Shown one piece after another: positions 1,993-2,370 of a stretch of DNA of 12,015 bases (position 1 is the stretch's first letter; the number at the start of each line of letters is the position of its first letter). Source of the DNA: a virus (Duplodnaviria > Heunggongvirae > Uroviricota > Caudoviricetes); IMG/VR virus record IMGVR_UViG_2703718843_000006. One strand, written 5' to 3'. Under the pieces are notes generated by a model that was not told where the DNA came from, ran no database searches, and worked only from the letters and a program-made list of their open reading frames with translations. The translations under genes and the position numbers were made by a program.

Positions 1993-2370
1993 AATAATCC
2001 CGACTTAATCAGACTCCTATGTTAGAAATGATTGTATATGTTTTCTGTGAAAATTCTATAAATTACACGTAACACTTTGTTTGATTTCTGATTTTGATAG
2101 GGCCATCTCAGTTACGACAACAAGCTTAATATTCGCAAACCTCTTATCTATGTGTGCCCAGTACCCACAGCATTACCATTTATTTCCATTCCGTGCGCAG
2201 CCCCGCCCGCCTGCCCGCTTCGCTTAACAGAATGGTTTTCATGCACCCGGTAAATCGCCTCAGGAGCCGCCACACAAGGGCTTTCACGTCAAAAATGATG
2301 CATGAGACTCATGCGTTTTCATGCGCCATAGACATGCACTCATGCGCTCTCAGGCCAGCCAGGAAAAAGG

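Follow-up and report, generated by a model that had tools for sequence, protein, structure and literature searches.

The segment from 2346 to 2193 on the minus strand of the window, by which we mean the whole 12,015-bp stretch of DNA analyzed here, is very probably the cos site of an 11.6-kb P4-like satellite, as judged from its sequence. This assignment is supported by sequence homology to known cos junctions, by the layout of the segment, by its position, by its conservation and by a breakpoint at which that conservation stops. A possible cos or packaging site had been proposed for this tract in the initial annotation, and both the position of the tract and its profile similarity to the P2, P4 and 186 junctions bear the proposal out. 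Here, the element that carries the site is described, followed by the parts of the site, their homologs and the alternative explanations.

The P4-Like Satellite of E. coli AH21

The window represents a P4-like satellite of 11.6 kb, integrated at tRNA-Arg in the chromosome of E. coli AH21, to which it is 100% identical. In AH21 the satellite adjoins tRNA-Arg, in the interval from yfdC to dsdC. A 16-nt exact direct repeat (CCCTGCAGGAATCGAA), one copy of which is the 3' end of tRNA-Arg, bounds 11,565 bp, compared with a length of 11,624 bp for P4. One copy of this att core is located at 10940-10955 of the window and the second at 9376-9391 of L008, about 625 bp ahead of the window start; therefore, about 600 bp at the satellite end, past the cargo gene, are missing from the window.

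Based on Pfam searches, all substantial genes are encoded on the minus strand, in the order int, alpha primase, sid-like gene, delta, terminator, flagged tract, and one AT-rich cargo gene. The products include a tyrosine integrase (10748-9477), a DUF5375 protein (6907-6524), a zinc-ribbon/Toprim/DUF927 primase of the P4 alpha type (6527-3855), a sid-like protein of 253 aa belonging to the Psu/Sid family (3454-2693), an Ogr/Delta zinc-finger protein of 90 aa (2693-2421), and the cargo, an HATPase_c_3 protein of 663 aa (1992-1) whose DNA has a GC content of 27-37%. The core gene set, the size of about 11 kb and the tRNA-linked att repeats are those of a P4-like satellite. On account of its ORF sizes and an Ogr-like zinc finger, the window was also considered as the end of a P2-like prophage, with the tract as attR beside ogr. 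This reading was ruled out because Pfam detected an alpha primase, a Psu/Sid-family protein and an integrase together with zero tail genes, and because the att repeat is at tRNA-Arg.

A separate psu gene is absent from the window copy, in which the sid-like gene (3454-2693) directly abuts delta (2693-2421); relatives such as L013 and L017 have a sid-delta gap of about 560 nt, which leaves room for psu. The genes are arranged as sid-(psu)-delta-cos in this lineage and as sid-delta-psu-cos in P4. Two TGT-N12-ACA dyads, TGTGTCGTGGCTGACACA and TGTGTGGTAGCTGGCACA, are present at 3489-3506 and 3527-3544 of the window, just upstream of the start of the sid-like gene (3454, minus strand). We take TGT-N12-ACA to be the signature of late promoters activated by Ogr/Delta, such as P4 Psid, and the two dyads are the likely promoter from which the operon terminated next to cos is transcribed. 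Two direct repeats, GTTCCACCTGTTCCAC (3739-3754) and GTTCCACCTGTTACAC (3804-3819), are found 65 nt apart just past the stop of the alpha primase gene (3855). The crr/ori-type repeats of P4 occupy the same position downstream of the alpha primase, and the repeats in the window are possibly replication iterons.

Organization of the Probable cos Site

All parts of the site are described here on the minus strand, from the satellite genes toward the cargo. The edge of the cos region toward the satellite genes is the intrinsic terminator of the sid-like/delta late operon (2374-2400), which folds (-13.6 kcal/mol) into an 8-bp stem (AAUCCCGG/CCGGGAUU) with a loop of 7 nt, ahead of a U run. Relatives keep both the stem and the T run but vary in the loop.

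The terminator is followed by a cluster of GCATG/CATGC (TCATGCG-type) repeats (2300-2346). Three of the repeats, at about 2338-2308 and in the arrangement GTGCATG-N8-GCATG-N5-GCATG, are common to P4 and all P2-like phages compared; they align with 11499-11533 of P4 and also with P2, 186, Cartapus and 500465-1, and their positions are nearly invariant among 40 unique satellite sequences. The TCATGCG copies noted in the initial annotation at 2309-2315, 2319-2325 and 2340-2346, the first two spaced 10 nt apart, are exact. TCATGCG or its complement occurs exactly three times in the 12,015-bp window, always within 2309-2346, and three copies in 50 nt were obtained in none of 500 first-order Markov simulations. 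The shorter GCATG/CATGC sites are found at 2240, 2300, 2310, 2320, 2333 and 2341; five of them in 50 nt were seen in 20 of the 500 simulations, so this clustering is only modestly unusual by itself. By analogy, the repeat arm would be a cosB-like arm recognized by the small subunit of terminase. No description of GCATG repeats as a terminase binding site was found in the literature.

The spacer between the repeats and the core (2247-2299) is conserved in length. Satellites share a well-conserved block within it (about 2296-2262), for which conservation against helper phages is poor. The core begins with the GTGCATGAAAACC box (2234-2246), the start of the equivalent of the 55-bp core cos of P2 and P4. 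The box is invariant in the satellite alignment, and its counterpart in both P2 and P4 is TGCATTAAAACC. The left flank of the predicted nick, ATTCTGTTAAGCGAAGCGGGCA (2212-2233), ends in AAGCGGGCA, an ending shared with 186, Cartapus and 500465-1. When the cores were aligned in pairs, this flank proved to carry a 5-nt tandem duplication, AAGCG, relative to enterobacterial phages and P4.

The predicted 19-nt cohesive end, 5'-GGCGGGCGGGGCTGCGCAC-3' (2193-2211), was aligned to GGCGAGGCGGGGAAAGCAC of P2 and P4 and to GGCGTGCGGGGATACGAGC of 500465-1. With the register taken from P2, P4 and 186, the nicks would fall between 2212 and 2211 on the minus strand and between 2192 and 2193 on the plus strand. 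From 2220 to 2193, AAGCGGGCA is followed by GGCGGGCGGGGCTGCGCAC, that is, the cohesive end starts with GGCG after AAG(C/T)GGGC(A/G). The 11 nt at its 5' side fit the family; the 8 nt at its 3' side differ and also vary among related satellites. The GC block that had drawn attention to this place, reading CGGGCAGGCGGGCGGGGCTGCGCAC from 2217 to 2193 on the minus strand, matches the window exactly, and the cohesive end of P2 and P4, which had been given as GGCGAGGCGGGGAAAGCAC, proved correct on comparison with the reference junctions. The AT-rich leader of the cargo gene (1993-2192), with 27-37% GC and dissimilar in relatives, lies outside cos and is the start of the variable hotspot.

The surroundings of the tract had also been described correctly, with the Ogr/Delta gene (2693-2421, minus strand) and the intrinsic terminator on one side and the AT-rich gene (1992-1, minus strand) on the other. 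The description of the tract as GC-rich has to be revised, since its GC content of 51-56% is normal for the satellite backbone (50-66% over 2400-7700) and it seems high because the cargo DNA to its left has 27-37%. No credible ORF is present, in agreement with the initial annotation. The tract has only two small ORFs, one of 73 aa (2154-2375, plus strand) and one of 41 aa (2148-2273, minus strand), both of which run past 2192/2193 into DNA that is not shared with relatives; they were rejected as genes because they straddle this boundary between conserved and variable DNA.

Homology to the cos Junctions of P2, P4 and 186

A profile was built with nhmmer from only those cos junctions that have been defined by experiment, namely those of P2, P4 and 186, and both strands were scanned with filters off. 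It gave one match in the 12-kb window, from 2339 to 2193 on the minus strand (E = 1.6e-8), and the runner-up had an E-value of 0.46. When the Cartapus and 500465-1 junctions were added, the resulting five-junction profile matched with E = 4.6e-16. The core aligns to those of P2, P4 and 186 with one 5-nt insertion and one 1-nt deletion. The first repeat of the window precedes the predicted left nick by 128 nt, as against 125-126 nt in P2, P4, 186, Cartapus and 500465-1. The elements common to the window and the circularized junctions of these five phages and satellites are three GCATG repeats, a spacer of fixed length, a (G/C)TGCAT(T/G)AAAACC box, and AAG(C/T)GGGC(A/G) followed by GGCG...GGGG. 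Alignment to helper-phage cos regions had been suggested as a check on the proposal, and the tract does align.

In similarity searches, megablast of 1900-3500 against phages gave no matches, and phage cos matches emerged only with blastn at word size 11. These matches sit in the cos gap of Peduoviridae, which in 500465-1 is between DinI and the portal gene, or at the record ends of Cartapus, where cos was annotated by the depositors, and of Burkholderia P2-like phages. The cos gap was also matched in Fels-2, RE2010, SopEPhi, and P2-like phages of Klebsiella and Yersinia. The match of 2309-2340 in Cartapus lies 62-92 nt from the record end, and this part of the tract is likewise matched by P2-like phages of Klebsiella and Yersinia.

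In P2, P4, 186, Cartapus and 500465-1 the cohesive end is immediately followed by YGCGCGC, a motif that the window lacks to the right of 2193. It is conserved in the compared phages, and to our knowledge there is no known requirement for it. The right junction of the window reads ...GCGCAC followed by GGAATGG, and that of many relatives reads GCGCGC followed by GCTGAGGGG. In an alternative alignment CTGCGCAC serves as the YGCGCGC flank, with 6 nt deleted, and therefore the overhang length and the right nick are uncertain.

Comparison with Named cos Systems

The cos site of P4 (NC_001609, junction 11499-11624 / 1-26) is found in the same place, after the late sid/delta(/psu) operon and before the non-essential/defence region. 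In P4, cos lies between the end of psu (11460; genome end, 11624) and the non-essential gop/beta/cII genes. It had been pointed out that P4 has cos in just such a position after the late genes, and the tract indeed follows the late sid/delta operon and precedes the non-essential cargo region. The two sites are alike in layout, with GCATG repeats that lie some 125 nt away from the nick, a TGCAT(T/G)AAAACC box, AAGCGGGC(G/A) preceding GGCG, and a G-rich cohesive end; the elements are also alike in size (11.6 kb). Over the 150-nt cos the identity is about 59-60%. The window has the 5-nt AAGCG duplication added and one base fewer in GGCGAGGCGGGG, its cohesive end finishes with ...GGGGCTGCGCAC where that of P4 finishes with ...GGGGAAAGCAC, and it is without the CGCGCGC right flank of P4.

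In P2 and 186, all conserved elements are on the same side, the right-end arm, as in the window, and the distance between repeats and nick agrees within 3 nt. The identity to P2 and 186 is about 58% (58-60% with P4 over about 150 nt), with indels in the core; for comparison, P4 and P2 share 64% over about 150 nt, and the P4 core is nearly identical to the P2 core. The context is different: cos is flanked by the A/old/tum region and the portal gene in P2 and 186, and by delta and the cargo in the window.

The nearest helper-type cos sites found were those of the E. coli P2-like phages Wadgaonvirus 500465-1 / vB_EcoM-813R9 and Elveevirus Cartapus, with 66-68% identity over 150 nt. They share GTGCATGTCTATG(C/G)CGCATGA, GCATGAAAACCA and AAGCGGGCAGGCG with the window, and 500465-1 also has the one-base-shorter GGCGTGCGGGG. 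The spacer from AAAACC to AAGCGGGCA, however, is 8 nt in 500465-1 and Cartapus and 13 nt in the window, and unlike that of the window their cohesive end finishes with ...GGGGATACGAGC, after which GCGCGC follows. The same GTTAAGCGAAG form with the 13-nt spacing is found in the cos region of the Burkholderia P2-like phage vB_PL2b.

The lambda-type cos (cosN and cosB) is a functional analogy only, as a nicking site with a one-sided repeat arm presumed to bind terminase, and it has no sequence relationship to the window. Lambda has 12-nt ends and is packaged from concatemers. P2 and P4 package from monomeric circles as the preferred substrate (PMC2231350). A 55-bp core cos and 19-nt ends are given for P2 and P4 in the passages of PMC5694545 and PMC2231350 that refer to Ziermann and Calendar (1990).

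Distribution, Conservation and Breakpoint

The tract was detected in 857 of 5,426 complete E. coli genomes (about 16%) with 88-100% identity, and also in satellites of six other genera. Seven non-E. coli loci from GTDB (Citrobacter, Enterobacter, Pseudocitrobacter, Shigella and Pantoea) were located through the Sid-like protein, and all seven have a cos-profile match downstream of sid/delta. The end of delta is about 200 nt upstream of cos in every locus compared (39/39 from IMG/VR and 7/7 from GTDB).

In the 40 unique sequences there is essentially no variation in the repeats, the AAAACC box or AAGCGGGCAGGCG. The median pairwise identity is 0.88 over repeats and spacer, 0.89 over the core, and 0.34 just past the predicted right nick, and the E. 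coli alignments end within the range from about 2168 to 2202, with 2192 and 2197 as the most frequent end points. The conserved backbone stops at the base that ends the 19-nt block, and unrelated cargo starts there. It was reported that in P4-like satellites the hotspot directly adjoins cos, between psu and int (Rousset et al., 2022; PMC9122126), and De Sousa and Rocha placed cos in the same psu-int interval (PMC8628076). All of the conserved putative recognition sequence is on the delta side of the predicted nicks, and the cargo hotspot begins at the other predicted nick.

Variation within the predicted cohesive end was also observed. Its 3' third, equivalent to 2193-2200, varies in near-identical satellites and reads CTGCGCAC, CTGTTCGC, CTGCCCGC, CAGCGCGC or others. 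The ends of different satellites would anneal imperfectly with each other.

Cargo Side of cos

The sole cargo gene of the hotspot (1-1992, minus strand) encodes a 663-aa GHKL-type ATPase (HATPase_c_3, 4e-20). A sub-threshold similarity to HSDR_N_2 was also obtained (E = 8.7e-4, 19.8 bits vs. a cutoff of 25), and PADLOC gave a partial match to REase_II (2e-8) that covers the ATPase part only. No named defence system was assigned by the libraries searched, and the protein is a candidate single-gene defence protein.

Among satellites from IMG/VR with the same cos subtype, L042, L043, L046 and L051 carry a full-length portal gene of the P2 gpQ type, and L015 (Pantoea stewartii) possibly does so. 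The gene is located at 7324-8502 (plus strand) in L046 and at 1376-2455 (plus strand) in L043, and its product has 60-63% identity to P2 Q and matches Pfam Phage_portal (7e-18). It is found on the cargo side of cos, with the side and orientation of Q in P2, and in L046 no other gene separates cos from int. These satellites look like products of satellite-helper recombination at cos, or else carriers of a satellite-borne portal. No mention of a portal gene in such satellites was found in the two hotspot papers searched for it.

Alternative Explanations

Three other explanations of the tract were weighed. The site could be a relic, descended from a cos of the P2/P4 type and kept by descent only, which current helpers no longer cut efficiently owing to the 5-nt duplication and the altered end. 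In favor of such a relic, the core is unlike every sampled enterobacterial helper cos and all 39 IMG/VR loci of the subtype are satellites. Loss of function is hard to reconcile, however, with strong position-specific conservation in 40 unique sequences from several genera next to unrelated cargo. The high prevalence among E. coli genomes (857 of 5,426) and the variety of the cargos point to ongoing horizontal spread, and the GTTAAGCGAAG spacing in the cos region of sequenced Burkholderia P2-like phages indicates that the longer spacing occurs in real P2-like phages. We therefore regard a relic as improbable.

A role in transcription instead of packaging, whether as a promoter, an additional terminator or a small RNA encoded where the late operon ends, is suggested by the place of the tract directly downstream of that operon and by a terminator-like hairpin that appeared in the scan (minus strand 2314 to 2300, GCATGAGTCTCATGC then ATCATTTTTG). 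This hairpin is a trivial outcome of the near-palindromic GCATGC repeats, and folds of 2292-2350 and 2186-2250 are no better than those of shuffled sequences (z = 0.00 and -0.14). A conserved ncRNA or promoter, named in the initial annotation as the outcome that would speak against cos, was not borne out: Rfam returned nothing in the tract, a tRNA being the sole match of that search, and the scan for sigma-70-like promoters found none in the tract. The TGT-N12-ACA site of Delta/Ogr is likewise missing from the tract and is represented by the two dyads upstream of the sid-like gene instead. The repeats also occur in other contexts in phages, beside the old promoter region in P2 and after t95b in 186. 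The cargo gene changes among relatives while the tract stays constant, so the tract is not the cargo promoter. Taken together, a transcriptional or RNA element is very improbable. The same can be said of a tract that acts mainly in the exchange of cargo, for example as the target of a site-specific recombinase, for which there seems to be hardly any chance. Such a site would account for the sharp breakpoint at 2192/2193 and for the many cargos among relatives, but no recombinase is associated with the tract, and att is elsewhere, in the 16-nt repeat at tRNA-Arg. A breakpoint at cos is, moreover, expected as a consequence of cos function and is not an alternative to it; recombination at cos ends has been a matter of published speculation (PMC9122126).

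cos Subtype of the Window

The subtype of cos in the window is marked by the AAGCG duplication (13-nt vs. 8-nt spacer), by one base fewer in GGCG(A/T)GGCGGGG, and by a different 3' half of the cohesive end. Two pattern scans of IMG/VR, with loci classed by tblastn using P2 Q/P/A and satellite proteins, showed that all 39 loci with the subtype are satellites. No enterobacterial helper with the 13-nt spacer was found among these loci (0/39) or in INPHARED, where the best matches had 66-68% identity and an 8-nt spacer. The Burkholderia P2-like phages are the only phages found with the 13-nt form. The core is identical to that of no sequenced helper, and the weakest E. coli BLAST match inspected (H103) is also in a satellite. 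A cos subtype restricted to satellites, with no matching helper cos among the sampled enterobacterial P2-like phages, is nevertheless rather doubtful on these comparisons; sampling could explain the apparent absence of such a helper, which is a mild curiosity.

Proposed Mechanism and Significance

In the proposed mechanism, induction by a P2-family helper would lead to excision of the satellite and its replication as a circle. The helper terminase, composed of homologs of P2 gpM and gpP, would recognize the arm that holds the GCATG repeats and the GTGCATGAAAACC box and nick the two strands at staggered positions, about 125-130 bp away from the first repeat. That terminase binds here, where it nicks and how long an overhang results are predictions by homology with P2 and P4. 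The satellite DNA would thereby become linear, with 5' cohesive ends of 19 nt (predicted sequence, GGCGGGCGGGGCTGCGCAC), and would be packaged into the small capsid dictated by the Sid-like protein. After injection, the ends would anneal and be ligated.

A cos site is an ordinary feature of a kind already described, and the present one agrees with published P4-like satellites (Rousset et al., 2022). Its use lies in annotation, as it would show where packaging starts and where precisely the defence-cargo hotspot has its left edge (2192/2193); in related elements, the cos profile places the hotspot boundary with single-base precision. The differences between this subtype and the helper cos offer a testable handle on the helper specificity of satellite packaging. 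If the absence of a matching helper is real, the satellite cos would be evolving on a track of its own. If a satellite-only subtype is true, the satellite cos might outcompete the helper cos for terminase or suit several helper lineages, and the exchange of cargo modules would take place exactly where terminase nicks.
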